Shown in pieces: positions 18,522 to 49,402 of a DNA stretch of 64,000 nucleotides (position 1 is the first letter of the stretch; each line of letters begins with the position of its first letter). A program made the translations under genes and the position numbers. This DNA is from an uncultured Planctomycetia bacterium (GTDB lineage: Bacteria > Omnitrophota > Gorgyraeia > 2-02-FULL-51-18): positions 10,766 through 74,765 of the forward strand of contig CAZSGP010000002.1 of the NCBI GenBank assembly GCA_964606485.1, written 5' to 3'. The notes under the pieces are model-generated. The model ran no database searches. It worked only from the letters and a program-made list of their open reading frames with translations, and was not told where the DNA came from.

Positions 18522-18851
18522 TTATTCTTCCGAGGCTTTTGACTTCGCCGTGTACCGACGCGCTTTGTGGTCGCGGACTTTATCATGTTTGCGTTGTATC
18601 TGAATTTGTGCTTTTCCGAAGCATTTGTCGAAAGCGGCATACATATCATCCGCCTGATCCTTAGCAGCGAGCCTCAGGTTCTTGCCGGACAACTCGATTT
18701 CGACCATTTGTCGGAACTTTTGAACATCCAAAATAACGTGTGCTTTCTCAATCTTTAAGGAATATTTATCCAGCCGCTCAAGTTTTTCACTGATGTACTC
18801 CTTGAGTGGTTCTGTAACTTGAAAGTGACGTGCGCTAATATCAATCTTCAT
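18522..18851 (-). CDS. hpf: Ribosome hibernation promoting factor (HPF/RaiA, short form); start at internal M with AGGAGG SD
   Basis: MKIDISARHFQVTEPLKEYI...; perfect Shine-Dalgarno (TAGGAGGTCTTATG) before the 18851 start. The longer ORF to 18884 is taken as an extension. Confidence 0.9.
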   Translation of the reverse strand: MKIDISARHFQVTEPLKEYISEKLERLDKYSLKIEKAHVILDVQKFRQMVEIELSGKNLRLAAKDQADDMYAAFDKCFGKAQIQIQRKHDKVRDHKARRYTAKSKASEE

Positions 18852-18872
18852 AAGACCTCCTAACAAACAACG

Positions 18873-18891
18873 GGCGACCTTCAAGGCCGCC
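18873..18891 (-). promoter_or_regulatory. Hairpin in hpf 5' UTR (GGCGGCC-UUGAA-GGUCGCC, one G-U pair)
   Basis: Inverted repeat in the 74-bp lptB-hpf gap, followed by a U-rich stretch CGUUGUUUGUU. Confidence 0.35.
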
Positions 18892-18908
18892 GCTACCGGA
18901 AAAGCGTT

Positions 18909-18937
18909 ATATTAACACAATCCCATTACATCGTAAA
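18909..18937 (-). promoter_or_regulatory. Putative sigma70-type promoter for hpf (TTTACG-17-TGtTAATAT extended -10) overlapping the lptB 3' end
   Basis: Hexamers and spacing read on the minus strand. Confidence 0.35.
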
Positions 18938-19648
18938 CTTCTCACCCAGATAGATTTTTCGCGCCTCGCGGCTTGCCAAAAGTTCGTCGCGCGTGCCCGA
19001 GATTAGAATCTTACCTTCGTACATGATATAGGCGCGGTCCGTAATTGCGAGTGTCTCGCGCACATTGTGGTCAGTGAGCAAAATGGCGAGCCCCTTGCGT
19101 TTTAACTCCAAGATAAGGTGCTGGCAATCCGAAACAGCGATTGGATCAATTCCTGAAAAGGGTTCATCTAGAAGTAGGCACAAAGGGTGCGTGACCAGTG
19201 CGCGGGTGATTTCAAGCCTGCGGCGCTCCCCGCCCGATAAGGTGTAAGCGCGTGCTTTTCGTAATTTTGCCATCCCAAGCTCATTGAGCAATTCCTCAAG
19301 TCGCTTCTGTCGCTCCGCCCTTGGTAGATCGAGCGTCTCTAAAATAGCCATAATATTTTCTTCGACGGTTAGCTTTCGAAATATGGAAGGCTCTTGGGAC
19401 AAATACCCTAAACCCAGCTGAGCGCGGCGGTGAATCGGATACTGACTGATGTCGCGGTGATCAAACAAAATTGAGCCGCTGTCCGGTTTCACAATTCCCG
19501 TCACCATATAAAAGGAAGTGGTTTTGCCGGCGCCATTAGGGCCTAAGAGCCCCACGACTTCGCCCGGGTTAATCGTAAGATCGACACCGCTGACGACGGA
19601 CCTGCCGCCATAGGATTTTTTAAGACCTTTAGCTTCCAAAAGGGACAT
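18926..19648 (-). CDS. lptB: LPS export ABC transporter ATP-binding protein LptB (start trimmed to MSLLEAKGLKKSYGG)
   Basis: Walker A GPNGAGKTT, signature LSGGERRRLEI, Walker B LLLDEPFSGID. About 241 aa once the spurious 5' extension to 19867 is removed. Confidence 0.92.
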   Translation of the reverse strand: MSLLEAKGLKKSYGGRSVVSGVDLTINPGEVVGLLGPNGAGKTTSFYMVTGIVKPDSGSILFDHRDISQYPIHRRAQLGLGYLSQEPSIFRKLTVEENIMAILETLDLPRAERQKRLEELLNELGMAKLRKARAYTLSGGERRRLEITRALVTHPLCLLLDEPFSGIDPIAVSDCQHLILELKRKGLAILLTDHNVRETLAITDRAYIMYEGKILISGTRDELLASREARKIYLGEKFTM

Positions 19649-20429
19649 CGAGAGCCTTTGTGCTATTTTTGTGAAAGGAGATTTCGGGATTTCCAACAAG
19701 CTTGATCGATCCGCTCGCAACATCATAAATAGCCTTCTGGGATTTGCTGGTGTCGCCGCCGCGATCAATTTGAACATTTCCCATCGCGATAATTTTAGTG
19801 ATCTTCTTTTCTGCCGAATCAAAAAAAACATCCATGCGGTTCGACTTGAGTATTCCCTTGTCGTCAACCACCGTTACATTTCGGTAAAATATCATTTTAT
19901 TGTCTTTGTAAAAAATCTTCATCGGACCCTTACAAGTCAGGTCTGTGGTGGCGTTGATCTGCATGTGAATATCGCGATTGAGCTGAACATAACTATCCGC
20001 AGGCCTGCCGCTTGCTCCGGTTCCCTCGATGATTGCCGCCCGGTGCACCACATGCACCCGCGCTTCGGTGGTCAAAAGACCTTCTTTTGGATCCCACTTC
20101 ACATGGTCGGTTTTAACCGCTGTGCCGTCCCGCATTTTAAGCGTCACATTTTCTTCCAAGAACACGGTTTGACCGGGGTCAATTTTGGCGGTCTCGCCCT
20201 CTAAATTCCAAAACTTCTTTCCCTGCTCATCAAAACCTGTGAGGTTAAATTTCTGAAGTTCCTGGTCTCGGCTTGACTGCACGAGCGCCTGGCGCTCGGG
20301 GCTTTTTCTTAATTTTTCATTCTCTCTTTTTTCGCGCATCAGCGAAAATAAAGCTAGCGCCATAATCAACACACAAAGAGCTAGAAGCGCTGTCAGCATA
20401 CTCTGCTGTTGGAAAAATTTCTTAATCAC
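19629..20429 (-). CDS. lptC: Membrane-anchored OstA-like LPS transport protein (LptC family; the only LptC/LptA-like gene in the operon)
   Basis: 266 aa; N-terminal TM helix then OstA-like beta-jellyroll. Sits between kdsC and lptB as in canonical kdsD-kdsC-lptC-lptA-lptB operons. Confidence 0.7.
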   Translation of the reverse strand: MIKKFFQQQSMLTALLALCVLIMALALFSLMREKRENEKLRKSPERQALVQSSRDQELQKFNLTGFDEQGKKFWNLEGETAKIDPGQTVFLEENVTLKMRDGTAVKTDHVKWDPKEGLLTTEARVHVVHRAAIIEGTGASGRPADSYVQLNRDIHMQINATTDLTCKGPMKIFYKDNKMIFYRNVTVVDDKGILKSNRMDVFFDSAEKKITKIIAMGNVQIDRGGDTSKSQKAIYDVASGSIKLVGNPEISFHKNSTKALDVPFGS

Positions 20430-20955
20430 GGTAATACCTCTCTGTGGCTTCGTGCCATTTTTTCTGTGTCTTTAAAATGAGCTCTGCCACTTCCCTCACC
20501 GCTCCGCGCCCGCCTTTTTTAGCGGTGATGTAATGCGCAGCGTTTTTAACTTCTTCAACTGCATTTTGAACCGCTGCTGAAAATCCCGAATGCCGCATGG
20601 CCGCCAAATCAATCAGGTCATCTCCCATGAAACAAATTTCTGACAAGTCCACCTTAAACTTACTAGCCGCTTTCTGCAAGGCCTTCAGCTTGTCATCAAC
20701 CTTCTGATAAAGCTTGGTGATTTTAATTTCTTTGGCGCGGCACTCGTTGATGCGAGATTTTTTAGAGGTAATGATAATGACTTTAATGCCCACGCGGGCT
20801 AGCAACGCACACCCAAGGCCATCCTGAGAATCAAAAAACTTTAACTCATCTCCGAAGTTGCCGTACACCATCCGGCCGTCGGTGAGAACTCCGTCGACAT
20901 CGAGCGCCACGAGCTTAATTTTTTGGATTCTATCTTTTAATTCGTCGGACAACAT
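20422..20955 (-). CDS. kdsC: 3-deoxy-D-manno-octulosonate 8-phosphate phosphatase
   Basis: 177 aa HAD-IIIA; LVALDVDGVLTDG and GDDLIDL motifs. Confidence 0.9.
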   Translation of the reverse strand: MLSDELKDRIQKIKLVALDVDGVLTDGRMVYGNFGDELKFFDSQDGLGCALLARVGIKVIIITSKKSRINECRAKEIKITKLYQKVDDKLKALQKAASKFKVDLSEICFMGDDLIDLAAMRHSGFSAAVQNAVEEVKNAAHYITAKKGGRGAVREVAELILKTQKKWHEATERYYRD

Positions 20956-21921
20956 TTAAACGATTCCGGCTTTGAGTAAATCCTGCACATCCAGCAAACC
21001 AACCGGCTTTCCATTTTTGTCCACCACTGGAATTTCGTCGATTTTCTTCGAACGCAAAACTTCCAAGGCTTCAGCGGCCAGACGCTCTTCACCGATGGTG
21101 GTGGGGTTTTTCGTCATAACACTCCCCACTTTTAATTTGAGTACCGCTTCGCCACCCTCCAGCCTTCTTCTCAAGTCTCCGTCGGTGAATATCCCTTTAA
21201 GCTTGCCGTTCGCACCAACCACTGCTGCAGAACCAGCCTTTGCGCGCGTAATACAGATCAAAACTTCTTTGAGTGACACAGACTCTTTCACCACGGGATT
21301 AGAATCCCCCTTACGCATAATATCTTTTACGCGCAAAAAGAGTTTCTTTCCAAGACTTCCGCCGGGGTGATAAAACGCAAAGTCTTTTGGCTTAAACCCC
21401 TTTCGCTCGAGTAGCGCCACGGCAAGCGCATCCCCCATCGCAATCATGGCTGTGGTAGAAGCGGTGGGCGCTAGATTCATGGGACACGCTTCTTTCTTAA
21501 CGCTCACGTCAATCACGCAGTCGCTGTAACGCGCTAAGGGTGATTTGGAATCCCCAGTAAATGCGATGAGCTTTGCGCCAATTTTTTTAATCACAGGTAA
21601 AAATTTTAAAATTTCTTCGGTCTGACCGCTATTGGAGAGAGCCACCACAACATCGTCTTTCATGACGCGGCCCAAATCCCCGTGCGCCGCTTCCGCGGGG
21701 TGTAAAAACAAAGACGGCGTTCCGGTCGACGAGAGAGTTGCTGAAATTTTTTGGGCAATGAATCCGGGCTTACCCATTCCCGTCACCACCACACGACCCT
21801 TGGCTTTTAAAATAATCTGGCAGGCTTGTTCAAAACTTTTACCGATGCGCGGGAGCAGGCTATTTAAAGCCGCCGCTTCAATTCCAATGACTTGCTTAGC
21901 GATCTTAATCGACACGTACAA
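20956..21921 (-). CDS. kdsD: Arabinose-5-phosphate isomerase (SIS + tandem CBS)
   Basis: 321 aa; SIS domain GRVVVTGMGK..., two C-terminal CBS domains. Confidence 0.9.
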   Translation of the reverse strand: MYVSIKIAKQVIGIEAAALNSLLPRIGKSFEQACQIILKAKGRVVVTGMGKPGFIAQKISATLSSTGTPSLFLHPAEAAHGDLGRVMKDDVVVALSNSGQTEEILKFLPVIKKIGAKLIAFTGDSKSPLARYSDCVIDVSVKKEACPMNLAPTASTTAMIAMGDALAVALLERKGFKPKDFAFYHPGGSLGKKLFLRVKDIMRKGDSNPVVKESVSLKEVLICITRAKAGSAAVVGANGKLKGIFTDGDLRRRLEGGEAVLKLKVGSVMTKNPTTIGEERLAAEALEVLRSKKIDEIPVVDKNGKPVGLLDVQDLLKAGIV

Positions 21922-22729
21922 CCTTGCTGAGTTTGAGCAGTCTCTCTAAAAGTTTTTCGAGATCGCTGAGTTTCACCATATTCGGACCATCACTCGGCGC
22001 TTTGTCGGGATTTTCGTGCACTTCCATGAATACTCCATCAGCTCCGGCAACCACACCACACTGGGCCAATGTCGGCACAAACTTTCTTTCACCACCCGAA
22101 CTAGCGCCTCGTCCACCTGGCTGCTGAACGGAGTGCGTGGCATCCATGACCACCGGGTAACCAAAACTTTTCATAATCGGAATAGCGCGAAAGTCGCTCA
22201 CCAGAGTGTTGTAGCCAAAACTGGTGCCGCGTTCAGTCAGAAGAATTTTGCGACTTCCGGCAGATTCAATTTTTTTAACCACATGCTCCATATCCCAAGG
22301 AGCTAAGAACTGTCCTTTTTTAACATTCACAATTTTTCCGGTTTTAGCTGCGGCAACGAGCAGATCGGTCTGGCGACAGAGAAATGCCGGGATCTGCAAC
22401 ACGTCCACCGTTTCTCCTGCGATGCGCGCTTCTTCAGCAGAATGCACGTCGGTTAATAGCGGCAAACCGGTTTCACTTCTCACCGCTTCCAAGATGCTCA
22501 ATCCTTTTTCAATCCCAAGCCCACGAAACGAGGACGAAGAACTGCGATTGGCCTTATCGTAACTTGACTTGTAAATGAGTGGGACATTTAATCGCTTGGT
22601 AATTTTTTGAATGGCCTTGGCGTGCTTGAGCGCACTCGCATGGTTTTCAACGACGCAAGGACCGGCGATTAAAAAAAGGCTCTCGCCTGATCCCATTTGA
22701 ATTTTTCCTAAAGCCACGCGATGGGCCAT
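21905..22729 (-). CDS. kdsA: 2-dehydro-3-deoxyphosphooctonate aldolase (Kdo-8-P synthase)
   Basis: 274 aa; LFLIAGPCVVEN and DAKS family motifs. Confidence 0.92.
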   Translation of the reverse strand: MAHRVALGKIQMGSGESLFLIAGPCVVENHASALKHAKAIQKITKRLNVPLIYKSSYDKANRSSSSSFRGLGIEKGLSILEAVRSETGLPLLTDVHSAEEARIAGETVDVLQIPAFLCRQTDLLVAAAKTGKIVNVKKGQFLAPWDMEHVVKKIESAGSRKILLTERGTSFGYNTLVSDFRAIPIMKSFGYPVVMDATHSVQQPGGRGASSGGERKFVPTLAQCGVVAGADGVFMEVHENPDKAPSDGPNMVKLSDLEKLLERLLKLSKVVRVD

Positions 22730-22732
22730 GGA

Positions 22733-24346
22733 TCAATTAACCTTATTGGCTAATGCGGCTTTGATGAACTCACGAAACAGCGGATGAGCCTGGTCAGGCT
22801 TCGATTTGAATTCCGGATGAAATTGGCAGCCCACAAACCAAGGATGGTCGACGAGTTCAATAATTTCAACTAAACGTCCATTGGGACTTGTCCCTGAAAC
22901 CACGAGACCGTTCGTTTCCATTTTCACTTTGTACTTATTATTAAATTCATACCGGTGGCGGTGACGCTCCTGGATAGAATCTTTTCCGTAAGCCTTTTGA
23001 GCTTTGGTTTGTTTTTTGAGTGAGCACGGATAAGAACCCAAGCGCATCGTGCCACCCAAATCCTGAACCCTCTTCTGCTCCTCTAGGAGGCTGATCACTG
23101 GGAACGGAGTCGTTTTATTAAACTCGGTGGAATTCGCACGGCTCATACCGCAGACATTGCGCGCAAATTCGATCACCGCACATTGCATGCCTAAGCAAAT
23201 TCCAAAATACGGGATTTTATTTTCCCGCACAAACTTGATGGCTTTAATTTTTCCCTCAATGCCGCGGTCTCCAAACCCGCCAGGAACGAGCACGCCGTGT
23301 ACGTCTTTTAAGAATTTTTCAGGCCCATGCGCCATCACTTCTTCGGCGTCAATTTTTTTTACAATCACTTTCGCGTCATTCGAAACGCCGCCGTGCTTGA
23401 GCGCTTCGTAAACGGACTTGTACGCATCCTGAAGCTCGATGTATTTGCCGACGAAACCGATCGTCACTTCCTTGGAGGGGTTTATAACCCGGTCCACCAC
23501 ATTAACTTTCCAATTTTTTAGTTTCGCTTCACCGTCATCACAGTTTAAGCGCAAAAGGCGAATGAGGATGGTGTCGAGCCCCTCCTCTTTGAGCGCTAAA
23601 GGCACTTCATAAATTTCCTGCACGTCGAGCGCCTGAATCACCTGATCGACCTCAACATTGCAAAACAAAGCGATCTTTTGACGCACTTCTTTCGATAACC
23701 GCTTTTCTGTGCGGCACATTAAAATATCGGGCTGAATACCAATCTCACGCATCTCGGCAACACTGTGCTGAGTAGGTTTTGTTTTGATTTCGTCCGCCAC
23801 GCGGATAAATGGAATCAAGGTTAAATGCACGTTGAGCGCATTTTCTTTACCGATGTCCTGACGGAACTGGCGAATGGCTTCCAAAAACGGGAGACTTTCG
23901 ATATCGCCAACGGTGCCACCGATTTCACAGATCACCACATCCACCGATTTATCTTTAGAGACATTTTTGATAGCGGCCTTGATTTCATCCGTGATATGCG
24001 GAACCACCTGCACGGTCGCGCCCAAATAATCTCCGTGGCGCTCCTTGGTGATCACCGAGTGATAAATTTTTCCGGTCGTGATGTTGCTGACTTTCGAAAT
24101 GTCGCTATTCGTGAAGCGTTCGTAGTGTCCCAAGTCGAGATCCGTCTCGGCGCCATCTTCAGTGACATACACTTCGCCGTGCTGGTAAGGACTCATCGTT
24201 CCCGGGTCCACGTTCAGGTAGGGATCGCATTTCATCATAATGACGCGAAGCCCCTTAGACTCTAAAATTTTTCCAATCGAGGCGGAAACAATTCCTTTTC
24301 CTAAGCTTGAAACCACGCCACCCGTAACAAAAATATATTTAGGCAT
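22733..24346 (-). CDS. pyrG: CTP synthase (start trimmed to [18 protein letters not shown])
   Basis: Synthetase domain plus C-terminal class I glutamine amidotransferase (GICLGMQ, HPEF). Confidence 0.95.
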
Positions 24347-25079
24347 TTTCTTCCTTTTGAAATAGTGCACGCGCCAATTCTAAATCCTGAGGAGTGTCCA
24401 CGCCGACGGTCTCAAAAACGGTTTCGATCGCTTTGATCTTGTACCCGTGTTCGATGGCCCTCAATTGTTCCAGACGCTCATTTTTTTCAAGATAAGACGG
24501 CGGTAATTTTTTGAAGGTGAATAAAAAATCCTTGTTGAACGCATAAATCCCGATGTGCTTGTAAAAAAAATGTTCATTGAGTGATGGATTGAGAAGTGTT
24601 GGAATTGGCGAGCGTGAAAAATAAATCGCAAAATTTTTCTCGTTTACGATCGCTTTCACCACATCCGGACTGCGAAATTCTTCGATGGAGTAGCTTTTCT
24701 TCACGACCGTCGCCATGGATACTTCAGGGTCGTCTTGCATGGCTCGCACCAAATCATCGATCACCATCGGGTTGATCAGCGGTTCGTCGCCTTGGATATT
24801 CACAACAATCTTCACATCAATCCCATTCACCACCTCGGTGAGCCGGTCAGTCCCCGTGGTGTGGGACTTAGAGGTAAAAATAGCCTTGCCGCCGAATTTT
24901 TCGACCGCCTTAATAATACGGTCATCATCAGCTGCCACAATTAAATCATCGAGCATCTTCGCTTTTTTAGCGCGCTCGTAAACGTGCTGAATCACCGGTT
25001 TCCCGCACAAATCTTTCAGCACTTTCCCTTCAAAGCGCGTCGATCCAAAACGCGCCGGGATTACTCCAATGGTTTCCAT
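24339..25079 (-). CDS. kdsB: 3-deoxy-manno-octulosonate cytidylyltransferase (CMP-Kdo synthetase)
   Basis: 246 aa; [16 protein letters not shown] and NIQGDEP motifs. Confidence 0.92.
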
Positions 25080-25083
25080 AAAT

Positions 25084-26079: not shown

Positions 26080-26091
26080 TGAGAACGACGC

Positions 26092-26122
26092 ATTCTAACA
26101 CCGGGTGTTTCAGGGTGTCAAT
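26092..26122 (-). promoter_or_regulatory. Sigma70-type promoter (TTGACA-18-TAGAAT) for the hldA-kdsB-pyrG-kdsACD-lptCB operon, with the 13-bp palindrome AACACC-C-GGTGTT (26097-26109) in its spacer; near-leaderless hldA mRNA
   Basis: Hexamers, spacing and a perfect 6-1-6 inverted repeat read directly from the 51-bp gap. Only about 12 nt separate the -10 from the hldA ATG. Confidence 0.55.
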
Positions 26123-26130
26123 CGAAACCC

Positions 26131-26910
26131 CTAAAAATCACTCTTCATCACGCCTTGGACCGGTCCAAAAGGGGTCTTCAGCGTAATCCAAATTGGTTGT
26201 CGCTTGGCGTCGGCGCTAAAATAAACATCGGCCCGGCCGCGACTGGCTAAAATTCCTTTGAGCTTGGTCTTGGGTTCCACCCGAATCACGGCAAACTCGC
26301 CGTGTTTGCGGATTTCCCGAATCTGGGTTTCGTGCACATTGAGCTCCACGTCCCATAATTTTTCATCGGAGGCTACCAGCAAATGAAACTGGTCACCCGC
26401 TTGAACATTTTGCCGACGAAACCAAAAAAAAGCACTGATCAAGTCGTGTGCGTCGGCAGGGATAGAAATTTCTTTTTTAGACCCGTTCGTCACAGACTCA
26501 TAAAACGCTTTTCCAGCTGCTCGATCATAAATCATTTTTTCGTGCGCTTGGTACCGCCCCTCTTGAATATTTTTTTCAAACCGAATGGGTAAAAACGTTT
26601 TAGCATCCAGATAGCTATGAATTTCGTCTCTCACGAAACAAAACTTAGATAAAAATTCATTCGACCCCGCAACGGCAATCACATGAAACGCCTCTACCCC
26701 GTCCATCACTGTTTTTTCTTTAACTTCGAGGGTTCCAAATCCTATAGGAACGCCCATCCAGGAAACATCGAAGATTATTTTCTCGCCGACCGTAAGCGTT
26801 TGAAGAGCAGGCTCAATGACAACGGTCTGGCTTTTTTTCGCAGAAACGGCGTTAGCGGCACATGTTTGCACACAAAGGAAGATCAATATGAGCGCTATTT
26901 TATTTTTCAT
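26131..26910 (-). CDS. Secreted DUF3108-like protein (Sec signal peptide MKNKIALILIFLCVQTCAANA)
   Basis: 259 aa; signal peptide; my recollection of DUF3108 family length and composition; 11-nt overlap with the upstream GT9 gene implies co-transcription. Confidence 0.5.
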   Translation of the reverse strand: MKNKIALILIFLCVQTCAANAVSAKKSQTVVIEPALQTLTVGEKIIFDVSWMGVPIGFGTLEVKEKTVMDGVEAFHVIAVAGSNEFLSKFCFVRDEIHSYLDAKTFLPIRFEKNIQEGRYQAHEKMIYDRAAGKAFYESVTNGSKKEISIPADAHDLISAFFWFRRQNVQAGDQFHLLVASDEKLWDVELNVHETQIREIRKHGEFAVIRVEPKTKLKGILASRGRADVYFSADAKRQPIWITLKTPFGPVQGVMKSDF

Positions 26911-28897
26911 GCTTGTCTGAGCCCAGCATCTCTTTTAATTTTACAAATACTTGATCCACGCCAACCTGCTTCAAACACTCAAACTGAATCGTACAGGCAT
27001 GCGCTAAACACACGACGCATCCGGGATTTTTCTGAATCGTCTCATGTCCGCTTCCGAGTGCCTTCCAGCGAGCCTGACTTAAGCCCGCTTGATTGCGGCC
27101 AAAGATGGTCAGCGTAGGCGTACCGACAGCTGCCGCCACATGCACCGGCCCCGAATCGTTGGACACCAAGAGCCGACTTTCTTTTAAAATTGCTGAAAGT
27201 TCAGGGAGAGACAATTTTCCGGTCAAATCCTGAACAAAATCGCCCAAACTCTCTTTTAAGTGTAGGCCGATTTGAATCTCCTCTGAACCTCCCACCAAAA
27301 TAACAGGCCCCACATTTTCTCGTTTCATTTTTTGACACAGTTCTAAAAATTTTTCCTGCGGCCAGCGTTTAGAGGGACAGCTAGCGCCGGCGTGAATTGC
27401 AATTGGCGAATGCAGTAGCTTAAATTTCTGAATTATATTTTCTCGATCCGCCTGATAAACAATCAAGCGGGGATTCTCTTTAGACTCCTCGACTCCAAAT
27501 GCCCGGACAATTTCAAGTGTGTAGTCAGACTCGTGCTTCTGACCTTCGCTGCGCACATCCTTTACTTTCTGGGTCAAAAGCCATGGCAAATGAGAATCAA
27601 ATCCAATCCGGTATGGAATGCCCGCTAAAAATGGGACTAGATGCGCGCGCGTGCTTGGATGCAGCAGAAACGCCACATCAAAATTGCGGTTTGCTATTTC
27701 CTTTAGAATATTCCGCGCACCCTTCCACCCTGAGTGCCGGCCACCTTTCTCGTAAAAATATGGCAAAACATTATCCACATCGGGACAACGTTCAAAAATC
27801 TCACGAACCGCGGCACGACAGAGAACCGAAATCGAAGCATTCGGAAAACGCCGGCGGATCGCGGAGAGGGCCGGAAAAGACAACACCGCGTCCCCCATGC
27901 GGTCAAGCCGCACCACCAGCACTTTGAAATTCTTTTTTAGACTGGATTCATTTAAAATTTCATCGGCACGTCGGTAAACAAGATCGGGACTCAACTCCTT
28001 CAGACACTCTTGCTTAAACCGGCACTGCGCCTTCTCACAAGGCGAACAAAAAACCCCCGAACGAAGCGCTGCGCTCAAGACCCCCTTAGGTCCGTATCGG
28101 CGCGGATCGGTCGGACCAAAAATCCCGATCACCGGAATTTCAAGCGCGTCGGCAATATGGAGCGGCGCGCTATCATTCGTGATCACGAGATTCGACGCTT
28201 GGATTAGACCCGCTAATTCTTCAAACTGAGTTTGCCCACAAAAATTATGCACCGACGCGCGCATCAAATTCTTCACCTTTAACGCATCGTCAATATCCGT
28301 CTTATCCCCGATCAATCCGATCTTTACTCCCTTTTCAAACGCCAGGCGGTCGAGCAGAGCCGCAAAATGCTCGGCGGGCCATTTTTTTGTATCACTCTTA
28401 GATCCAACGGCTGCCAAAACCAAACCCGTGACACTCGACTGATTTAAAAATGCGTCGTAACTCGCATCTAATTTGGCCTTGCGCGAAAGCCAAGCTGCGG
28501 AACCCGCAATCGATGATTCTACAGAACAAATCCCTCTGAGGGCTGACAAGTGCCGCAAAGAACGAAGACTGCGTTTCGAGCAATATGAAAAATACGAATT
28601 CCGCTTCCGCGCTCCACCCAGCAAACCAAACAAGGAGTGGCGAAGGTCAATAATCAGATCGTAACGTCGTTTTCTGATTTCAAAAAGTATGTTTATTTTT
28701 TCAGAAAGCGGCGCACGCTTGTTAAAAATTTCAAGGCGATGAATCCGGGAATCATTTTCAAAAACGCATTTTGCGGAACTCCCAACAATCACATCAATTT
28801 GGGCATTAGGAAAAGATTCGTAAAGGGCGCGAAAAACCGGGAGCGTCAAGACCACGTCTCCCAGATTGGAAAGTGTGATAACTAAAATTTTTTTCAT
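26900..28897 (-). CDS. Tandem double glycosyltransferase family 9 protein (two heptosyltransferase-like domains fused, boundary near nt 27934)
   Basis: 665 aa; MKKILVITLSNLGDVVLTLPV... at the N-terminus and a second ...KNFKVLVVRLDRMGDAVLSFPAL... GT9 start at about aa 322; both halves end with GT9 C-terminal ...ND(S)(G/A)P(L/V)H(I/V)A(D/A)A motifs. Confidence 0.8.
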   Translation of the reverse strand: MKKILVITLSNLGDVVLTLPVFRALYESFPNAQIDVIVGSSAKCVFENDSRIHRLEIFNKRAPLSEKINILFEIRKRRYDLIIDLRHSLFGLLGGARKRNSYFSYCSKRSLRSLRHLSALRGICSVESSIAGSAAWLSRKAKLDASYDAFLNQSSVTGLVLAAVGSKSDTKKWPAEHFAALLDRLAFEKGVKIGLIGDKTDIDDALKVKNLMRASVHNFCGQTQFEELAGLIQASNLVITNDSAPLHIADALEIPVIGIFGPTDPRRYGPKGVLSAALRSGVFCSPCEKAQCRFKQECLKELSPDLVYRRADEILNESSLKKNFKVLVVRLDRMGDAVLSFPALSAIRRRFPNASISVLCRAAVREIFERCPDVDNVLPYFYEKGGRHSGWKGARNILKEIANRNFDVAFLLHPSTRAHLVPFLAGIPYRIGFDSHLPWLLTQKVKDVRSEGQKHESDYTLEIVRAFGVEESKENPRLIVYQADRENIIQKFKLLHSPIAIHAGASCPSKRWPQEKFLELCQKMKRENVGPVILVGGSEEIQIGLHLKESLGDFVQDLTGKLSLPELSAILKESRLLVSNDSGPVHVAAAVGTPTLTIFGRNQAGLSQARWKALGSGHETIQKNPGCVVCLAHACTIQFECLKQVGVDQVFVKLKEMLGSDKHEK

Positions 28898-29883: not shown

Positions 29884-29891
29884 GGAAACCT

Positions 29892-30716
29892 TTAAATGAT
29901 CGGAATCCGTTTTTTTCCTAAATGGTACAAGCCGCTGACCTTCAGCCAAAAGCTAAACAAACTTCCTCTGCTCTCACTGATTTTCACGCGGCGAAGCGCC
30001 ATAACATCATACCGAGTTCCTCCCCACATCTCTTTACGCTTAGAGGCGTAATTCGTCGTCACAGCGCACTGATACCCAGCTTGCTCCGACAGCTGCCTCA
30101 CCGCCTTGGTAACGCCCCCCGCGGGATAGCTCAGAAGAAAAATAGGATGCCCAAGAATCTTTTCAAGCCGGTTGCGCGACTCTTGGAGCTCCGCGATCGC
30201 GTTTTCAATGGACACTCTAGGTAAAAATGCGTGGTTATGCGTGTGGCTGCCGATCTGGATACCCGCGCCTTCTAAAATTTTCAAATCTTCTTCAGACAGC
30301 CACCCCTCTTTACCAACATTCCCGGTGATCATAAAAATAGTGGCCTTAAAACGCATTTTCTTTAAAACCGGAAAGGCATTTTCAAAATTATCAAGCGTGC
30401 CGTCGTCGAACGTGATGACCACGGTGTTGTAAGGAATCCTTTTTTGCGCTCTCAAAAGATCCGCTAAATCCAGCAGCGAAATCACATTGTAATGATGAAT
30501 GCGCAAAAACTCCATTTGCCGCTCGAAAGTTTGAAGGCTGACATCGGTGCTGGAGTTTAAATGCTGACCCGCTCCAACCCTGTGATACATCAAAATAGGA
30601 ACCTCATAATTTGCGCGGCAAAATACAAAACAAGCGACAAGCAGCGCTGGGATAATTACAAAGCGTTTTTTAAAACGAAAATTCATTAATGCGCTCCGCT
30701 GAAACTTCGCGCTCAT
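29892..30716 (-). CDS. Polysaccharide deacetylase (CE4/NodB family) with N-terminal membrane anchor
   Basis: 274 aa; TM helix then ILMYHRV, TFDDG, HTHNH motifs of CE4 enzymes. Confidence 0.8.
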   Translation of the reverse strand: MSAKFQRSALMNFRFKKRFVIIPALLVACFVFCRANYEVPILMYHRVGAGQHLNSSTDVSLQTFERQMEFLRIHHYNVISLLDLADLLRAQKRIPYNTVVITFDDGTLDNFENAFPVLKKMRFKATIFMITGNVGKEGWLSEEDLKILEGAGIQIGSHTHNHAFLPRVSIENAIAELQESRNRLEKILGHPIFLLSYPAGGVTKAVRQLSEQAGYQCAVTTNYASKRKEMWGGTRYDVMALRRVKISESRGSLFSFWLKVSGLYHLGKKRIPII

Positions 30717-32823
30717 CGAGTCGATTTTTTTGGCGGGCGTCCTTTAAAAAAGCCAACGTACAATCCAGGACGTCCTGTGGAAGTATTTTTTTCATACAGA
30801 TATGTCCAATCGGGCAGCTGCGCAAATAACAAGGGCTGCAGGAAATCTCTTTCCAAAACACCTGGCAAACGCTGGGAGCTACGAGATGGCGCTTGGGATC
30901 GGTTGGACCAAACAGAGCAATCAGCGGAACATTGGCCCCGGAGGCAATGTGCATCGGAGCTGAATCTGAACTAATGAACACCTGGCAACGACGGATGAGC
31001 GCCGCGAGCTCCGTGATAGATGTTTTTCCAACCGCATTGATCGGCTTGTTGCGTGTCAGCTGAAAAAGAGGCTCAATGGTTTTAGCGTCTTCCGGAGCCC
31101 CCGTGATCACAACCCGGATATTGCGCTTGGCAAGTTCATCGCAAAGCCTGGCAAAATATTCGAGTGGCCACTGCTTAGTGGGCCAACGAAGTGAGGATGC
31201 CGGATTAATTCCCACCAAAGTTTGACTAGAGGCCACCCACTGCGATTCTAAAAATTTGCTCACGCGAACATTCTCTTCTTGCGATGTCCAAAGCTCTAAT
31301 TTTTTTTCACTAGATTCCACGTCCACTAGTCTTAAAACTCGAAACTGGTGGTCTAGCGGGGCGGCGGAAGACGCCTCTTGAGAAGTGGTTTTGTTGAGTA
31401 AAAATGACCATTTTCGGTTGGCGTGTCCTGCGCGAACTCGAGCGCCGCTTAAAAAGGCTAGCAAATGACTCGTGCGGTTATTTTGCAAATCAACACAGAC
31501 ATCAAAATCTTCTTTTGCCAAAATTCGCGCCGTTTTCAAAATGCGGCTAATGCGCTCTTTGCCCTGTGCTTCCTCGTAAACAATCACATCGTTGACGTAA
31601 GGACAATTACGGATCACCTGGCGGGACTTGCGCCCCACCAAAACAGAAATCCAGGCATCGGGATATCGCTGCCGGAGTGCGCGCAGCGACGGAATGCTTA
31701 AAATAACATCCCCCAGCGCACTAAGCTTAATCACAAGAATTTTCTTTTGATTCATCGCCTCGTCATAAACTTTTAATGTTTTTTCAAACATGCCCTTGGC
31801 ATCAAACAACGTTTCAACTTTTTTTCTGAGCGCCAAAACAAGTGACGCGGCAAATTCAGGTTCTTTAACAAGGCGGATCACAGCCTCAGACAAAAGACGC
31901 GGATCATCCGGCGGAACCAGTAGCCCGTCTTTCTCATTTTCAATAATATCAACCAGGCCCCCGATTTTAGACGCTACCACTGGAACTCCGCAGGCCCCCG
32001 CCTCAATGGCCACGCGGCCAAACGCCTCTTCACCCACCGACGGCACCACCAGCACCGTCATAGACGCTAGTGCTTCGGAAATGTCATACCGGGTCCCTAA
32101 AAATTCAACGTTGTGCGTTAGGCCCAGACGCCGCGTCAGCATCAAAAGCTCTTCTTTATACTGCGGCTTTGGCGAGTCGCCGATAATCCGTATTTTTACG
32201 TTCGGGAACACCCGAACTACGCGAGCCATTGCTTTTAAAAAAACGGGATGGCCTTTAATGGGCGTTAGTCTTCCAATCACACCAATCACAATCGGTGAAC
32301 CGGCAAGAGGCGTGGGTTCGGGCCTTAATTTGAATTCATTCAAGTTCACGCCGCGATGAATGAGGCGAATGCGTTGGTGTGGCACCCCAAAGTCATCGCG
32401 CATGCGCCGGCCAATGATGTGACTTGCGACAATCACGCGCTTGCCCCAGCCCATGATGCGGCTCATCAAGTGCTTGCTATAAAAACCATGACAGGTCGTT
32501 ACAAACGGCACATGTGTTTTACGGCTTGCTAAAAAAGCAATCCAGGCAGGCACGCGACTGCGCGCGTGAATAATTTGAATTTCTTCCTTACGAATGATAT
32601 TTGCTAAAGATCGAGCGGAGCTAAAAATGCTAAATGGGGATTTTTTGTGCACCGGAAGCTTGTAATGCGTCACCCCTGCTGATTCGAGATCAGCCACAAG
32701 CGGACCACCTGCGGATACCACCACCGAATGATGGCCGGCATTTTTAAGGTATTTCGCGAAGTCAACCGTGCCGCGCTCCACTCCGCCCGATTGAAGTTCC
32801 GGCAACACCTGAAGAACTCTCAT
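30670..32823 (-). CDS. Bifunctional GT4 (RfaG-like) - GT9 (heptosyltransferase-like) fusion glycosyltransferase (boundary near nt 31749)
   Basis: 717 aa; N-terminal GT-B GT4 domain (VVASKIGGLVDIIENEKDGLLVPP, the E-X7-E region) followed at about aa 359 by KKILVIKLSALGDVILSIPSLRAL..., a GT9 domain with C-terminal SSDSAPMHIASG. Confidence 0.8.
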   Translation of the reverse strand: MRVLQVLPELQSGGVERGTVDFAKYLKNAGHHSVVVSAGGPLVADLESAGVTHYKLPVHKKSPFSIFSSARSLANIIRKEEIQIIHARSRVPAWIAFLASRKTHVPFVTTCHGFYSKHLMSRIMGWGKRVIVASHIIGRRMRDDFGVPHQRIRLIHRGVNLNEFKLRPEPTPLAGSPIVIGVIGRLTPIKGHPVFLKAMARVVRVFPNVKIRIIGDSPKPQYKEELLMLTRRLGLTHNVEFLGTRYDISEALASMTVLVVPSVGEEAFGRVAIEAGACGVPVVASKIGGLVDIIENEKDGLLVPPDDPRLLSEAVIRLVKEPEFAASLVLALRKKVETLFDAKGMFEKTLKVYDEAMNQKKILVIKLSALGDVILSIPSLRALRQRYPDAWISVLVGRKSRQVIRNCPYVNDVIVYEEAQGKERISRILKTARILAKEDFDVCVDLQNNRTSHLLAFLSGARVRAGHANRKWSFLLNKTTSQEASSAAPLDHQFRVLRLVDVESSEKKLELWTSQEENVRVSKFLESQWVASSQTLVGINPASSLRWPTKQWPLEYFARLCDELAKRNIRVVITGAPEDAKTIEPLFQLTRNKPINAVGKTSITELAALIRRCQVFISSDSAPMHIASGANVPLIALFGPTDPKRHLVAPSVCQVFWKEISCSPCYLRSCPIGHICMKKILPQDVLDCTLAFLKDARQKNRLDEREVSAERINEFSF

Positions 32824-34808
32824 CCCAAAATCCTTTGCATGGCTCTAGACAAAACCTGCTCATCTGAGCGCTCAGCTTCCGAACTTTTTTGAGGCTTAAA
32901 ATTTAAGAATGTTTGTGTCATATTTTCAGAGCCAATCATTTCAATTTGTTTTTTTTGCTTCATAAAATCTAAAAATCTTTTGTACTTCGGCTTAAGCTCA
33001 TCTGCCTTAAAGGGTGTGAATACCATCACCCGTTTACCCGAAGCGATGGCTTCTGACACCATCGACATTGACTCCGCGGTCACCACCACACTTTCACACA
33101 AACCTAAAATTGCATTCACAACACCGGGTCTGTTTTTTTCGTTTGCGATCACAAGCAGCGGACAAATTCCTCGATCTGAAAATTTCTCTTTTAAAATTTC
33201 GTCTGCCCAAGGTGGCGTCCGGCGCGACGTTGTAACAAAAATTTTTAAATTCTGCCCTTTGGCCAAACGCAGTAAATCATCGGTATTTTTTTCAAAAATT
33301 TCTTTTGAAAATTGGACGTCCTCGGTGTCGCCCCCGATTAAAACCCCAAGCGTTCTACAACCCTCTTCAAGCCCAAGCTCGTCTTTTAACTTACGCGCCT
33401 CATCAAGCGCTTTCTTAGGATTTGCTAAAGACAGTACACGCTCTGTTATAAACACATTGGCGGAAGGTGTTATTTTATCATGCAGCGGAGCAATCACAGC
33501 GTCAAAACGCCCTGCTCCAAAGGGCGGCTTCATCACGATAGCGGCCTTAGCCTTTAAATCCCTCTTAAGCGCAAGGCTTACTCCCGCAATCGAGCTTCCG
33601 CAGGAAATGAAAATATCCGCCGGAGCGGCCCACAAATCAGCGAGCGTCTTTTCGTCCAAACAAAGATTCATCCAAGACTGTTCAAACCAGGGATTTCCAG
33701 CGCCTAGAAAATAGACAGTCTGAAAAAGTTTACGCAAGATCGGATTCTTAAATTTCACCTCGACCACTTTGACTTGAGTTTCCTCGTCGGGCAACCCCTG
33801 CCCGCGCCGGTACTGCGCGAGCGCTTCCGACACGGCTAAGGATTGATTGAGATGTCCCGCCTTCCCATCGCTCAAAACAACAACGAACCGGGTTGTTGTG
33901 GATTTCCAGCGCCGATGACCCCACATCCACATGGTCGGGTCTTTGCGGATCTTCGCCTCCAAGAGAGTTGCAAACTGCTGAAGCACCGCTTTTTCAGTTT
34001 CCTCTTCACTAAGACCTTTTGGAAAATCGAGCGCGGCTTCCATTTCAATGCGGTGATTCATTTGATTTTCTCTGAAAATAAATCCTGGAAAAATCGGCGC
34101 CCCTGCTTTGAGTGCAAATGCGACAACGCCGCGCGGCGTGGACGAGGCTCTTCCGAACAAACGAACAAAAACACCGTTGCGGCCCCCGTCTTGATCACTT
34201 AAAATACCAACCGCCTTTCCTTCTCTGAGCACACGGATGAGCTGGCGAATCATCATTCCCTTGTAAATAATCTCACTACCCTGCGAAGCTCTTAAAGAGT
34301 TCAGGAATTCATCCGACCGAGGGTGTTTTTGCGCGCGCGCCAGAGCCGCCAGCGGATGCCCTACGAGACAAGCGGTGGCGTTTAATAATTCCCAATTTCC
34401 AAAGTGACCCGTTAAAAAAATAACCCCCTTGTGGGCGTCTAAAGAGGGCTGAACTTTTTCAAGGTTCACGATCCTCACGTGTTTTTCGATGTAATCACGG
34501 GTTAAATCCGGAAAACGCAAAAGCTCGACCATGGAGACAGCGAGATTCACCATGGATTGTCGGGAGATAGTGTTAATTTCGGAGCGGGATTTTTCGCCTT
34601 TAAAACAAAATCTTAAGTTTTTATAGGCAATGTGTCGACGGGTGGTTAAAACATAGAATAGATGGCCGATGCTTCGTCCAATCCTGCAAGAAACCGGAAG
34701 CGGTAAAACACGGACAAGGAACCGGAGGGCTTTGGAAGCCCTAAGAATTAAGGCATCTTCTAATAAAATCTTCTTCATCGCCCAATTCAAACTCAATTTG
34801 AAGTACAA
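32820..34808 (-). CDS. Lipid A secondary (lauroyl/myristoyl) acyltransferase LpxL-family domain fused to a C-terminal ELM1/DUF1022-like domain (boundary near nt 33896)
   Basis: 662 aa; N-terminal LABLAT fold with HFGNWE catalytic H-X4-E motif; C-terminal about 355 aa begins TRFVVVLSDGKAGHLNQSLAVSEAL, resembling the ELM1-family N-terminus as I recall it (tentative). Confidence 0.7.
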   Translation of the reverse strand: MYFKLSLNWAMKKILLEDALILRASKALRFLVRVLPLPVSCRIGRSIGHLFYVLTTRRHIAYKNLRFCFKGEKSRSEINTISRQSMVNLAVSMVELLRFPDLTRDYIEKHVRIVNLEKVQPSLDAHKGVIFLTGHFGNWELLNATACLVGHPLAALARAQKHPRSDEFLNSLRASQGSEIIYKGMMIRQLIRVLREGKAVGILSDQDGGRNGVFVRLFGRASSTPRGVVAFALKAGAPIFPGFIFRENQMNHRIEMEAALDFPKGLSEEETEKAVLQQFATLLEAKIRKDPTMWMWGHRRWKSTTTRFVVVLSDGKAGHLNQSLAVSEALAQYRRGQGLPDEETQVKVVEVKFKNPILRKLFQTVYFLGAGNPWFEQSWMNLCLDEKTLADLWAAPADIFISCGSSIAGVSLALKRDLKAKAAIVMKPPFGAGRFDAVIAPLHDKITPSANVFITERVLSLANPKKALDEARKLKDELGLEEGCRTLGVLIGGDTEDVQFSKEIFEKNTDDLLRLAKGQNLKIFVTTSRRTPPWADEILKEKFSDRGICPLLVIANEKNRPGVVNAILGLCESVVVTAESMSMVSEAIASGKRVMVFTPFKADELKPKYKRFLDFMKQKKQIEMIGSENMTQTFLNFKPQKSSEAERSDEQVLSRAMQRILG

Positions 34809-35721
34809 AAAAATTGACTCCCAAGAAATCCTCCGCAGAAGCTCCTTTTAATACCGGCTCAAGCCTGTAAAAATCTTTTTCGGTGGTGACGACGTCCCGC
34901 ACCCCAAGATCCTTGCAGCGCCGCGCAAATGCCATCACGTCCTGCCGCGTGTAAGGGTGATGATCGTCAAAGCGCCCCGCCAAAATAATTTCGGAACCCA
35001 AGAGTTCAAGCGTCTTCTCAAAACTATGAGGATCTCCGATTCCAGACAACGCCCCTACTTTTCGATTCTTTAAAATCTCAAGCTCCACAGATTTTTTCTT
35101 ACGAATATCAATCAGGTCAACCGGCTTATGAATCGCCTCAAAAATGGCGGCTCCCGGCTTAATGGTTAAGAGTTTCTGCCGGATCAAATGAAGATTTTTT
35201 GAACCAATATTACTTTTGGTCAAAACAAAAACTTGAGCGCGGTTTAAATTTTCAAGTGGCTCTCTTAAGTTTCCTTCCGGAATTAGTCCCCCGGGCCCAA
35301 ACGGACAGGTCGCGTTGATATTCACCACGTCCAAATCTCTATGGAGACGGATATGCTGGAATCCATCATCCAAAATAACAATTTCGGCCCCATGCTTTTC
35401 GACGGCCTCGGTTGCCGTTTTAATTCGGTCCCGGCCGACGAGCACAGGGATGCCGGGTAAGCGACTTTTAAGCTCAGCTACTTCGTCTTTTCCATAACCA
35501 CGAGTAAGAACGGCTGTTTTCTTTCCTTGAATGCTCATGTAACGCGCAAGCGCGATCACAAGCGGTGTCTTACCGGTTCCGCCCCAGGTAATGTTTCCAA
35601 CGCTGATTACTCGAGCGCCCACTTTACGAATTCGGTCGGGGTGAATTTTATAAGTCGCCTGTGTGAAGCGAACAACGGCTCCATAGATTCGAGACAAAAA
35701 CTGCAAAAACCATTTTTTCAT
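34741..35721 (-). CDS. lpxK: Tetraacyldisaccharide 4'-kinase
   Basis: 326 aa; GNITWGGTGKTP P-loop. Confidence 0.9.
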   Translation of the reverse strand: MKKWFLQFLSRIYGAVVRFTQATYKIHPDRIRKVGARVISVGNITWGGTGKTPLVIALARYMSIQGKKTAVLTRGYGKDEVAELKSRLPGIPVLVGRDRIKTATEAVEKHGAEIVILDDGFQHIRLHRDLDVVNINATCPFGPGGLIPEGNLREPLENLNRAQVFVLTKSNIGSKNLHLIRQKLLTIKPGAAIFEAIHKPVDLIDIRKKKSVELEILKNRKVGALSGIGDPHSFEKTLELLGSEIILAGRFDDHHPYTRQDVMAFARRCKDLGVRDVVTTEKDFYRLEPVLKGASAEDFLGVNFFVLQIEFELGDEEDFIRRCLNS

Positions 35722-35733
35722 TTTAATCTTTCC

Positions 35734-36990
35734 TTATGCGTTCAAAAAATCAATAGATCTTTGTGTAGCGCCTTGATGCAGCTTGATAATCTTTTTGGCC
35801 TTCTGACCTAACCCCACTCTAAAATTAACGTCCGCAATCTGCTTGTCGAGCGCCGCGCTCAACATCTCTAAATCTTTAACTTCGAACCCTGCTCCTTCTT
35901 TCAAAAACAATTCGGTCATTTGGCGAAAATTTTGCGTAAATGGGCCAAATAAAATCGGCTTCTCAAAATACGCAGGCTCCACCAGATTGTGTCCTCCGGT
36001 CGGAACCAAGCTTCCTCCAACAAAAACAGAGTCCGCCGCATTATAAAAATCTGCCAAAGCCCCCATTTTGTCGAGCACGACAATTCCCGCGCTCTGCCCG
36101 CTCTTCCATTGCGACAATCGAACCAGTTCTAAATTTCGGTCCGCTGCCAGCTTCTCAATCTTCGAAAGCCTGTCTAGGTGACGAGGGGCTAAAAGCAACG
36201 CAAAGAAAGAGTATTTTGCCTTGAGGTGGCAGTAAGCGTCAAAGAGAATCTCCTCTTCCCCCGCATGCGTACTGCCGGCCACCCAAAGAAATGTGTTGCT
36301 CCCGAGCGCTTTTCTAAAGAAATCTGCTTCCCCCGCGAACACTCCCTTCGGGAACCAGTCATATTTTAGATTTCCAGAGACATGAACAGTGTCTGGCGCA
36401 GCGCCCAAACTGATAAAACGTTCTTTCGCCTGTTCGTCCTGGGCAAGAATTCCCTTGAGACGTCGCAAGACCGGCGCTAAGAATAGTTGGACACGGCGAT
36501 ATTTTGGAAACGCGCGGTCTGAAATGCGTCCATTCACAATCCATGCAGGAATTTTTCGGTCGGACAACTCAAAAATGAGATTCGGCCAAATCTCGGTTTC
36601 GAATAGAATCACGCGCTCGGGCCGAACAGCATTCAAAAAACGCTTCACCGCAAAAAATCCGTCGATCGGACAGTATAAGACCGTATCATCGTCCGAGCGA
36701 TTTTTGAGAACCGTTTCCCTTCCGGTTGCCGTCGTGGTGGTGATTAAAAAATGTTTATCTGGCCAATTTTCTTTGAGTGCTTTTAAAAAAACCATGGCCT
36801 GGGCCGCCTCACCCACCGAAACCGCGTGAATCCACACCACTGATTTTTCGCGTAGTTTCTGCTGGATTTGAATCGGTACAAATCCAAACCGCTCGCGTAG
36901 CCCGCCTTTAAATTTCCCCTTCGCAATAAAAGTTGGGAGATAAATTAAAGAAAAAATAAAAAAGCCGACGTTATAAATAAATCTAAGCAT
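35734..36990 (-). CDS. waaA: 3-deoxy-D-manno-octulosonic acid transferase (Kdo transferase)
   Basis: 418 aa; N-terminal TM then WIHAVSVGE motif; GT30. Confidence 0.9.
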   Translation of the reverse strand: MLRFIYNVGFFIFSLIYLPTFIAKGKFKGGLRERFGFVPIQIQQKLREKSVVWIHAVSVGEAAQAMVFLKALKENWPDKHFLITTTTATGRETVLKNRSDDDTVLYCPIDGFFAVKRFLNAVRPERVILFETEIWPNLIFELSDRKIPAWIVNGRISDRAFPKYRRVQLFLAPVLRRLKGILAQDEQAKERFISLGAAPDTVHVSGNLKYDWFPKGVFAGEADFFRKALGSNTFLWVAGSTHAGEEEILFDAYCHLKAKYSFFALLLAPRHLDRLSKIEKLAADRNLELVRLSQWKSGQSAGIVVLDKMGALADFYNAADSVFVGGSLVPTGGHNLVEPAYFEKPILFGPFTQNFRQMTELFLKEGAGFEVKDLEMLSAALDKQIADVNFRVGLGQKAKKIIKLHQGATQRSIDFLNA

Positions 36991-49372: not shown

Positions 49373-49402
49373 ATTATAGCACGAAGACTAGCTGGGTGTT
49401 AA
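49373..49402 (-). promoter_or_regulatory. Sigma70-type promoter of the ilvBNC-leuA operon (TTAACA-18-TGcTATAAT extended -10); the -35 overlaps the alr stop codon
   Basis: Hexamers read on the minus strand in the 52-bp gap; RBS AAGGA 8 nt before the ilvB ATG. Confidence 0.6.

Follow-up and report, generated by a model that had tools for sequence, protein, structure and literature searches.

How do so many genes for lipopolysaccharide (LPS) come to stand in one block? The question is raised by positions 18926 to 36990 of the window analysed here (the whole 64-kb stretch, 64,000 nucleotides of contig CAZSGP010000002.1), in which 16 contiguous minus-strand genes were identified by Pfam and NCBIfam. 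We judge with good confidence that the region is a chromosomal array of Candidatus Omnitrophota for the LPS inner core, 3-deoxy-D-manno-octulosonic acid (Kdo) and Lpt export, inherited in conserved order and neither an island nor an artefact. Most products of the array exceed the curated equivalog or subfamily cut-offs. All the gene families named in a preliminary description of the sequence were recovered on the minus strand at the positions given, and its functional reading was borne out: the block is a contiguous LPS cluster of late lipid A steps, CMP-Kdo synthesis, heptose kinase, core glycosyltransferases (GT) and LptB/LptC. From position 36990 downward the genes run in the following order (aa, amino acids).

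35734 to 36990, minus strand: waaA, Kdo transferase (GT30), 418 aa; PF04413 202 bits, NF004388 E=2e-104
34741 to 35721, minus strand: lpxK, tetraacyldisaccharide 4'-kinase, 326 aa; PF02606 246.5 bits, TIGR00682 166.6 (cut-off 92)
32820 to 34808, minus strand: fusion of an LpxL-like secondary acyltransferase of lipid A with an ELM1/GtrOC1-like GT-B domain, 662 aa; PF03279 175.5 bits and PF06258 163 bits
30670 to 32823, minus strand: GT4–GT9 fusion, 717 aa; PF13692/PF00534/PF13439 at aa 13-328, PF01075 at aa 429-674
29892 to 30716, minus strand: CE4 polysaccharide deacetylase, 274 aa; PF01522 98 bits
28894 to 29949, minus strand: single-domain GT9 (heptosyltransferase family), 351 aa; PF01075 93.7 bits, TIGR02195 139.1 (cut-off 134.6)
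26900 to 28897, minus strand: tandem GT9–GT9 fusion, 665 aa; PF01075 on two stretches
26131 to 26910, minus strand: DUF3108 protein, 259 aa, with signal peptide; PF11306 120 bits
25084 to 26079, minus strand: hldA, D-glycero-beta-D-manno-heptose-7-phosphate kinase, 331 aa; TIGR02198 395.9 bits (cut-off 345), PF00294
24339 to 25079, minus strand: kdsB, CMP-Kdo synthetase; NF003952 301 bits (cut-off 193)
22733 to 24370, minus strand: pyrG, CTP synthase; PF06418 431 bits, PF00117
21905 to 22729, minus strand: kdsA, Kdo-8-phosphate synthase; NF003543 416 bits (cut-off 242)
20956 to 21921, minus strand: kdsD, arabinose-5-phosphate isomerase with SIS and two CBS domains; TIGR00393 339 bits (cut-off 204)
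20422 to 20955, minus strand: kdsC, Kdo-8-phosphate phosphatase; TIGR01670 159.9 bits (cut-off 107)
19629 to 20429, minus strand: membrane-anchored LptC with LptA-like C-terminal extension, 266 aa; PF06835 at aa 54-154, PF03968 at aa 174-258
18926 to 19648, minus strand: lptB, LPS export ATPase of the ATP-binding cassette type, 240 aa; TIGR04406 345.7 bits (cut-off 240)

The conservation of this order was examined by scanning a genome collection for HldA, and the window proteins were mapped by tblastn onto the 80 loci obtained. Gene orders were counted over the first 64 loci and L070, taken as Omnitrophota-type; L056, L057 and L059 were included in these counts though labelled otherwise and lacking the link to kdsB. 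The comparison with relatives proposed in the preliminary description showed that the order recurs. The core hldA-kdsB-(pyrG)-kdsA-kdsD-kdsC was found in 40 of the 43 evaluable loci, and continued through lptC/A-lptB in 29 of the same 43. The upstream set, consisting of GT9-GT9, GT9 and GT4-GT9 together with LpxL-ELM1, was observed in 24/38 evaluable loci, and the complete array in 16/33, down to 52% HldA identity. Array-bearing independent assemblies come from different studies and include the closed chromosomes CP070780.1 and CP070837.1. Since the order is kept in dozens of independent assemblies, chance is excluded. For the non-Omnitrophota loci (approximately L056 to L080, except for example L058, L060 to L064 and L070), hldA was not located beside kdsB. 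All the matches of a KdsA homologue search showed at least 70% identity, and the named ones were Omnitrophota except for one metagenome-assembled genome labelled Eisenbacteria. The consolidation, called unusual in the preliminary description, is indeed so relative to E. coli but is the normal and common state within Omnitrophota. A literature search found no paper on an Omnitrophota LPS cluster. Several records with Omnitrophota-type arrays (L001, L003, L008, L010, L014, L030) carry the labels 'uncultured Planctomycetia', 'Candidatus Eisenbacteria' or 'Parabacteroides sp.', which are probably taxonomic mislabels or reflect mis-binned contigs.

The membership of the array varies among relatives for pyrG, DUF3108, hpf and CE4. 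Of 43 related loci, 19 have pyrG placed between kdsB and kdsA, and 10 contain hpf; of the 38 loci evaluable upstream of hldA, 22 contain CE4 and only 9 contain DUF3108, a lineage-specific member. The conserved order also extends into the non-LPS genes that neighbour the array in the window.

36983 to 41247, minus strand: dprA, thiS-topA fusion and xerC, upstream neighbours; Pfam and NCBIfam matches
16611 to 18513, minus strand: tig and clpP, downstream neighbours; TIGR00115, TIGR00493

The order dprA-topA-xerC-waaA was observed in all 13 metagenomic loci reaching far enough, and in 28 of 43 loci the gene after lptB or hpf is tig. As this order continues into unrelated housekeeping genes at either end, the clustering partly reflects general gene-order conservation within the phylum.

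Strand and packing were then compared between the array and its surroundings. All 61 non-nested long open reading frames (ORFs) of the window are on the minus strand, an extreme co-orientation accompanied by overlap coupling; the only two plus-strand ORFs both overlap longer minus-strand ORFs and were taken as spurious. The median gap is −8 nucleotides (nt) within the cluster and −4 nt in the rest of the window, by which the cluster was not considered tighter, and only seven gaps of more than 20 nt exist in the entire 64 kb. The host genome is built of long co-directional, overlap-coupled gene runs, and streamlined genomes are expected to cluster their genes in this manner. The single strand and near absence of intergenic DNA noted in the preliminary description are true of the cluster, but the same holds across the whole window and provides no evidence for a super-operon. 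The GC content, 0.46-0.49 within the cluster and 0.46-0.50 outside, shows no anomaly, and the GC skew is monotonic. An Rfam scan of the window detected no RNA family, and thus no tRNA or other Rfam-family RNA gene stands beside the block.

As for the transcriptional organization, the following signals and the first gene beyond lptB were noted.

26092 to 26121, minus strand: sigma-70-type promoter, TTGACA-N18-(TG)TTAGAAT, in the 51-nt gap before hldA; matching at 11 of 12 positions, with the extended −10 TG
18873 to 18891, minus strand: GC-rich hairpin with weak T-tract in the 75-nt lptB-hpf spacer, the top terminator-like site
18522 to 18850, minus strand: hpf, ribosome hibernation factor; PF02482 79 bits

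The single recognisable promoter that had been proposed before hldA does exist: no site within 18-38 kb is better, and in the window only one other intergenic site likewise scores 12. At the same position, TTGACA-N17-19-TAnAAT was found in about 24 related loci of several lineages, and this positional conservation supports the view that the promoter is real. In lineages without the motif, the preceding GT9 gene extends up to hldA. With only 12 nt between the end of the −10 element and the ATG, and with no Shine-Dalgarno sequence, the hldA mRNA is probably almost leaderless, with a very short leader. The promoter spacer shows dyad symmetry in some lineages, either ACAC…GTGT or ACAATATA…TATATGT (loci L001-L054; 26080-26121 in the window); it could be an operator, but it is absent in other lineages and no operator is claimed. 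The other top intergenic promoter-like site (49373-49402, minus strand; TTAACA-N18-TGcTATAAT) is located upstream of ilvB-ilvN-ilvC and may mark another long transcription unit.

These observations support the presence of at least two transcription units, of which the hldA→lptB unit would start at the 26.1-kb promoter and may end at the weak hairpin before hpf, possibly a partial terminator; the hpf gene itself, directly after lptB, starts at 18850 with its own AGGAGG Shine-Dalgarno sequence. The preliminary description had suggested two polycistronic units, 37.0-26.1 kb and 26.1-18.9 kb. The latter is supported by the conserved promoter, but the former could not be delimited: no recognisable 5' boundary was found, the junction sequence shows an 8-nt overlap of the waaA ATG with the xerC stop, and the next gap of more than 20 nt upstream of waaA lies at 44.5 kb. 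The waaA→DUF3108 genes lack a recognisable promoter of their own and are overlap-coupled to xerC; their transcription therefore probably begins further upstream or at internal promoters that escaped recognition.

The assignment of the enzymes was most straightforward for the Kdo block. KdsD, KdsA, KdsC and KdsB, constituting the CMP-Kdo pathway, each pass a curated model, and KdsB, KdsD and KdsC are 38%, 49% and 42% identical, respectively, to the E. coli proteins. The complete CMP-Kdo pathway claimed in the preliminary description is therefore present as four enzymes, but the cluster falls short of the 'whole inner-core pathway': gmhA, gmhB, hldC and hldD are absent from the window (as judged from the ORF list, reading of the translations and Pfam on selected ORFs), and so are lptF/G, lptD/E, msbA and lpxA-D/H/B. 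Likewise, the heptose activation and export it had listed are represented by HldA, which corresponds to RfaE domain I only, and by LptB and LptC, but nothing further of either pathway is in the cluster. For the late Raetz pathway, orthologues of both LpxK and WaaA were identified, the latter 34% identical to E. coli WaaA across residues 1-416 (full length).

The third protein on the lipid A side is a fusion, with the acyltransferase at aa ~20-305 and the GT-B domain at aa ~310-662. Its start likely lies 10 codons further in, as an identical database protein has 652 aa. The ELM1 domain scored 163 bits with PF06258 against a cut-off of 27 bits. For the LpxL domain, all the NCBIfam equivalog scores were under cut-off, the best being NF006270 (163 against 248); by its sequence matches, membership of the LpxL family is firm but the substrate and acyl-chain specificity is not. 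At least 120 clusters of full-length fused homologues bear Omnitrophota names, and the domains are fused in 18/18 related loci showing both halves. In the AlphaFold model (predicted local distance difference test, pLDDT, 90.6; predicted template modelling score 0.86), the ELM1 part consists of two Rossmann-like halves. Foldseek against the PDB related the N-terminal domain to PatA/LpxM and the C-terminal domain to generic GT-B enzymes only, and searching by sequence yielded no relative of the ELM1 half with a solved structure. From their fusion, the ELM1 domain may share its substrate, Kdo-lipid A, with LpxL. In eight related loci (L017, L018, L020, L026, L031, L037, L044, L064), a second, stand-alone LpxL paralogue was observed between kdsC and lptC. 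In other Omnitrophota lineages an extra GT4 gene stands beside GT4-GT9; this gene and the second LpxL are both absent from the lineage of the window.

As to the core glycosyltransferases, four GT9 domains were found by PF01075 and BLASTP, two in the 665-aa protein and one each in the 351-aa and 717-aa proteins, instead of the five counted previously. The four paralogues are mutually 25-31% identical, and each aligns end-to-end with E. coli WaaF, WaaQ and WaaC in BLASTP; all are nearer to WaaF/WaaQ than to WaaC, and the 351-aa protein is 26% identical to WaaF. The heptosyltransferase II model TIGR02195 was passed by three of the four, that is, the C-terminal half of GT9–GT9 (151.6 bits), the single-domain GT9 (139.1 bits) and the C-terminal half of GT4–GT9 (159.2 bits), while the N-terminal half of GT9–GT9 stayed under the cut-off of 134.6 with 123.4 bits. 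The two halves of GT9–GT9, both of which align full-length to WaaF/WaaQ/WaaC, are 25% identical to each other. They are fused in 20 loci and encoded by two adjacent genes in 19, from which both halves are probably active enzymes. A Thioredoxin_9 match in the linker of this protein (23 bits) was under cut-off and was dismissed. GT4 and GT9 are fused in 31 related loci. The CE4 protein carries an N-terminal hydrophobic anchor or signal sequence, as read from the sequence, and its catalytic domain probably faces the periplasm. For the DUF3108 protein, a sequence search found no relative of solved structure.

At the export end, the LptC protein scored 57.3 bits with TIGR04409 (cut-off 38) and has a C-terminal LptA/LptD_N signature; TIGR03002 matched its C-terminus only, with 32.9 bits against a cut-off of 71.7. 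The structural model (pLDDT 87) shows one N-terminal transmembrane helix followed by a continuous beta-jellyroll at aa 61-251 (~190 residues), about 1.4 times the length of LptC or LptA, and the best-matching folds were the LptD N-terminal domain, LptC and LptA. This LptC/A is a single gene in 30/30 loci where it was seen and in about 100 database clusters, and a separate lptA after it was found neither in the window nor in any related locus examined. LptB is 53% identical to E. coli LptB over residues 1-240. Its start had been placed at 19867, which was not borne out; the ATG is at 19648, overlapping the lptC stop by 20 nt, and the TIGR04406 alignment begins at ORF residue 77. The 18851-18925 spacer contains no rpoN between lptB and hpf, and no gene-sized gap follows lptB in the related loci either, where tig or hpf is directly next.

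What, then, accounts for the consolidation? A function-driven super-operon, assembled by selection for co-regulation and transcribed into one or two polycistronic mRNAs of its own with limits at 37.0 and 18.9 kb, would agree with the contiguity and functional relatedness of the 16 genes, with the conserved promoter at hldA and the hairpin after lptB, and with the position of PyrG, the CTP source for KdsB, inside the Kdo block. However, no boundary is present at 37.0 kb, where waaA overlaps xerC, the conserved order runs on through dprA-topA-xerC and tig-clpP, and strand and packing are alike across the whole window; besides, pyrG, DUF3108, hpf and CE4 are gained or lost among relatives, and key pathway genes are not in the block. 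We regard a super-operon of this type as unlikely. Horizontal acquisition of an LPS or polysaccharide island is far less probable still. Glycosyltransferase arrays are often mobile and a tyrosine recombinase gene, xerC, adjoins waaA, but the recombinase is of the chromosomal XerC/XerD type (TIGR02224 336 bits) in a conserved dprA-topA-xerC context, neither flanking tRNA or Rfam-family RNA genes nor a shift in composition was detected, and the conservation across the phylum tracks HldA divergence. The island was rejected on these grounds.

A joining of separate loci by chimeric assembly or mis-binning was considered on account of the source, a metagenome-assembled genome, and of the inconsistent labels (Planctomycetia, Eisenbacteria, Parabacteroides) on some related records. 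Its probability is negligible: dozens of independent assemblies, the closed CP070780.1 and CP070837.1 among them, share the order, composition and GC skew are uniform, and genes overlap at every junction. An assembly chimera is refuted by the recurrence in independent assemblies and closed chromosomes.

Several observations nevertheless weigh against an inherited array with the functions and limits described above. In half of the relatives that could be evaluated, one flank of the array is missing, and full consolidation is thus common but not universal in Omnitrophota. Promoter-like and terminator-like sites are overall not enriched relative to shuffled sequence (24 terminator-like sites against 29.5 expected), and the operon limits proposed here are predictions from one conserved promoter motif and gene overlaps. 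The use of heptose would follow from HldA and GT9 alone, with gmhA, gmhB and hldC lying outside the window. The equivalog of heptosyltransferase I (WaaC), TIGR02193 (cut-off 185.3), was reached by none of the four GT9 domains, and no WaaC orthologue acting on Kdo was identified among them. Finally, the exported CE4 and DUF3108 proteins might serve another envelope polymer; their link to LPS is positional only.

Taking enzyme assignments from family membership, and the order of reactions from the established Raetz, Kdo and ADP-heptose pathways, the inherited array might work as follows. LpxK would phosphorylate the tetraacyl-disaccharide to lipid IVA, KdsD, KdsA, KdsC and KdsB would produce CMP-Kdo with CTP supplied by PyrG, and WaaA would move Kdo onto lipid IVA. 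The LpxL domain would then attach a secondary acyl chain. HldA would feed the ADP-heptose pathway, and a short core would be built by the four GT9 domains, the one GT4 domain and the ELM1/GtrOC1-like GT-B domain. CE4, probably in the periplasm, may de-N-acetylate an amino sugar. Export would begin with LptB, together with LptF/G from elsewhere, and the anchored, extended LptC/LptA-like jellyroll.

The array is best read as joining small blocks known from other bacteria. In E. coli, yrbG-kdsD-kdsC-lptC-lptA-lptB-rpoN-hpf shows the same order kdsD→kdsC→lptC→(lptA)→lptB→hpf, on one strand with overlapping genes, and the orthologues of its kdsD–lptB part are 42-53% identical. In contrast to E. coli, the window has no rpoN between lptB and hpf, has one anchored extended-jellyroll protein in place of LptC plus LptA, and has hldA-kdsB-pyrG-kdsA directly before the block. 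The mla operon directly adjoins this locus in E. coli, whereas mlaD and mlaF for phospholipid transport (62679-63978, minus strand) lie in the window some 26 kb away from the LPS array, upstream and on the same strand. A link between lpxK and kdsB resembling that in the window is found in E. coli msbA-lpxK-ycaQ-ycaR-kdsB, but the window is without msbA and has about 9 kb of glycosyltransferase genes between lpxK and kdsB. The waa (rfa) region of E. coli likewise holds GT9 heptosyltransferase paralogues, a WaaG-like GT4 and waaA together, waaA adjoining the waaQ operon and hldD-waaF-waaC. That region, however, consists of three divergent operons on both strands including hldD, waaL and the kinases WaaP/WaaY, whereas the window set is on one strand without ligase or kinase, with GT9-GT9 and GT4-GT9 fused and with lpxK and lpxL inside. 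The scattering of these functions in E. coli, asserted in the preliminary description, is confirmed by these three separate loci (kdsD-lptB-hpf, lpxK-kdsB and waa); kdsA, pyrG, hldE and lpxL occupy further separate ones.

CTP synthase beside Kdo genes, as in kdsB-pyrG-kdsA of the window, is also the arrangement in Chlamydia (kdsB-pyrG) and Pseudomonas (pyrG-kdsA-eno), although literature searches gave no source; these links involve two or three genes, while the array is 18 kb long. For the pairing of ELM1-like and CE4 proteins, judged by Pfam family and gene context, a precedent exists in the outer core (OC) locus of A. baumannii, an LPS/lipooligosaccharide (LOS) core cluster combining an ELM1-family GT, a CE4 and GT4-type enzymes. 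There, GtrOC1 (Mito_fiss_Elm1) and Pda1 (CE4) are adjoining, and GtrOC1, with a function predicted only, is proposed to form the first inner-to-outer-core link (PMC4172580). Knock-down of gtrOC1 groups with lpt genes in chemical genomics (PMC11975115). Differences are that ELM1 of Omnitrophota is fused to LpxL, unlike GtrOC1, and that Acinetobacter LOS is without heptose, whereas the window has GT9 and HldA.

The novelty is modest and lies in how far the genes are consolidated and in the fusions that are conserved; families and chemistry are known, and knowledge of LPS chemistry is unchanged as all components come from known families. Omnitrophota are uncultured and often ultra-small bacteria, and their envelope is known from genomes only. 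The compact block may serve as a marker for a diderm, LPS-bearing Omnitrophota envelope and as a single fragment clonable for heterologous study, and its natural fusions hint at which enzymes act together, notably the uncharacterised ELM1/GtrOC1 family with Kdo-lipid A. As a tentative extension, which we consider possible but rather doubtful, LPS assembly in Omnitrophota could be a streamlined module of about 18 kb with fused steps, in which a bifunctional LpxL-ELM1 couples secondary acylation of Kdo-lipid IVA to a first, uncharacterised glycosylation, GT9-GT9 and GT4-GT9 act as two-step enzymes of core extension, and one anchored LptC/LptA-like protein with a long jellyroll replaces the LptC and LptA pair. 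If true, ultra-small bacteria of the Planctomycetes-Verrucomicrobia-Chlamydiae group would have a streamlined version of LPS assembly and export.

The most interesting by-product, outside the LPS finding, is the fusion of ThiS with topoisomerase I upstream of the array (37879-40137, minus strand). At aa 5-67 lies a complete beta-grasp domain of the ThiS type (PF02597) with the end ...VNFVGGG, joined in frame to TopA through a K/S-rich linker without a stop codon. For none of the 150 best TopA representatives did the best-scoring stretch of the alignment cover the ThiS domain, and no ThiS-like sequence was seen in the 10 N-terminal extensions checked. The in-frame fusion was observed in 17/19 related metagenomic loci (L084-L101), with 41-63% identity and linkers of 6 to ~70 aa; in two loci, thiS ends with GGG-stop immediately before topA. 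Since the chemistry of ThiS/MoaD normally requires a free GG end, the fusion would imply that the protein is either cleaved or uses the domain structurally, as a ubiquitin-like part of TopA.

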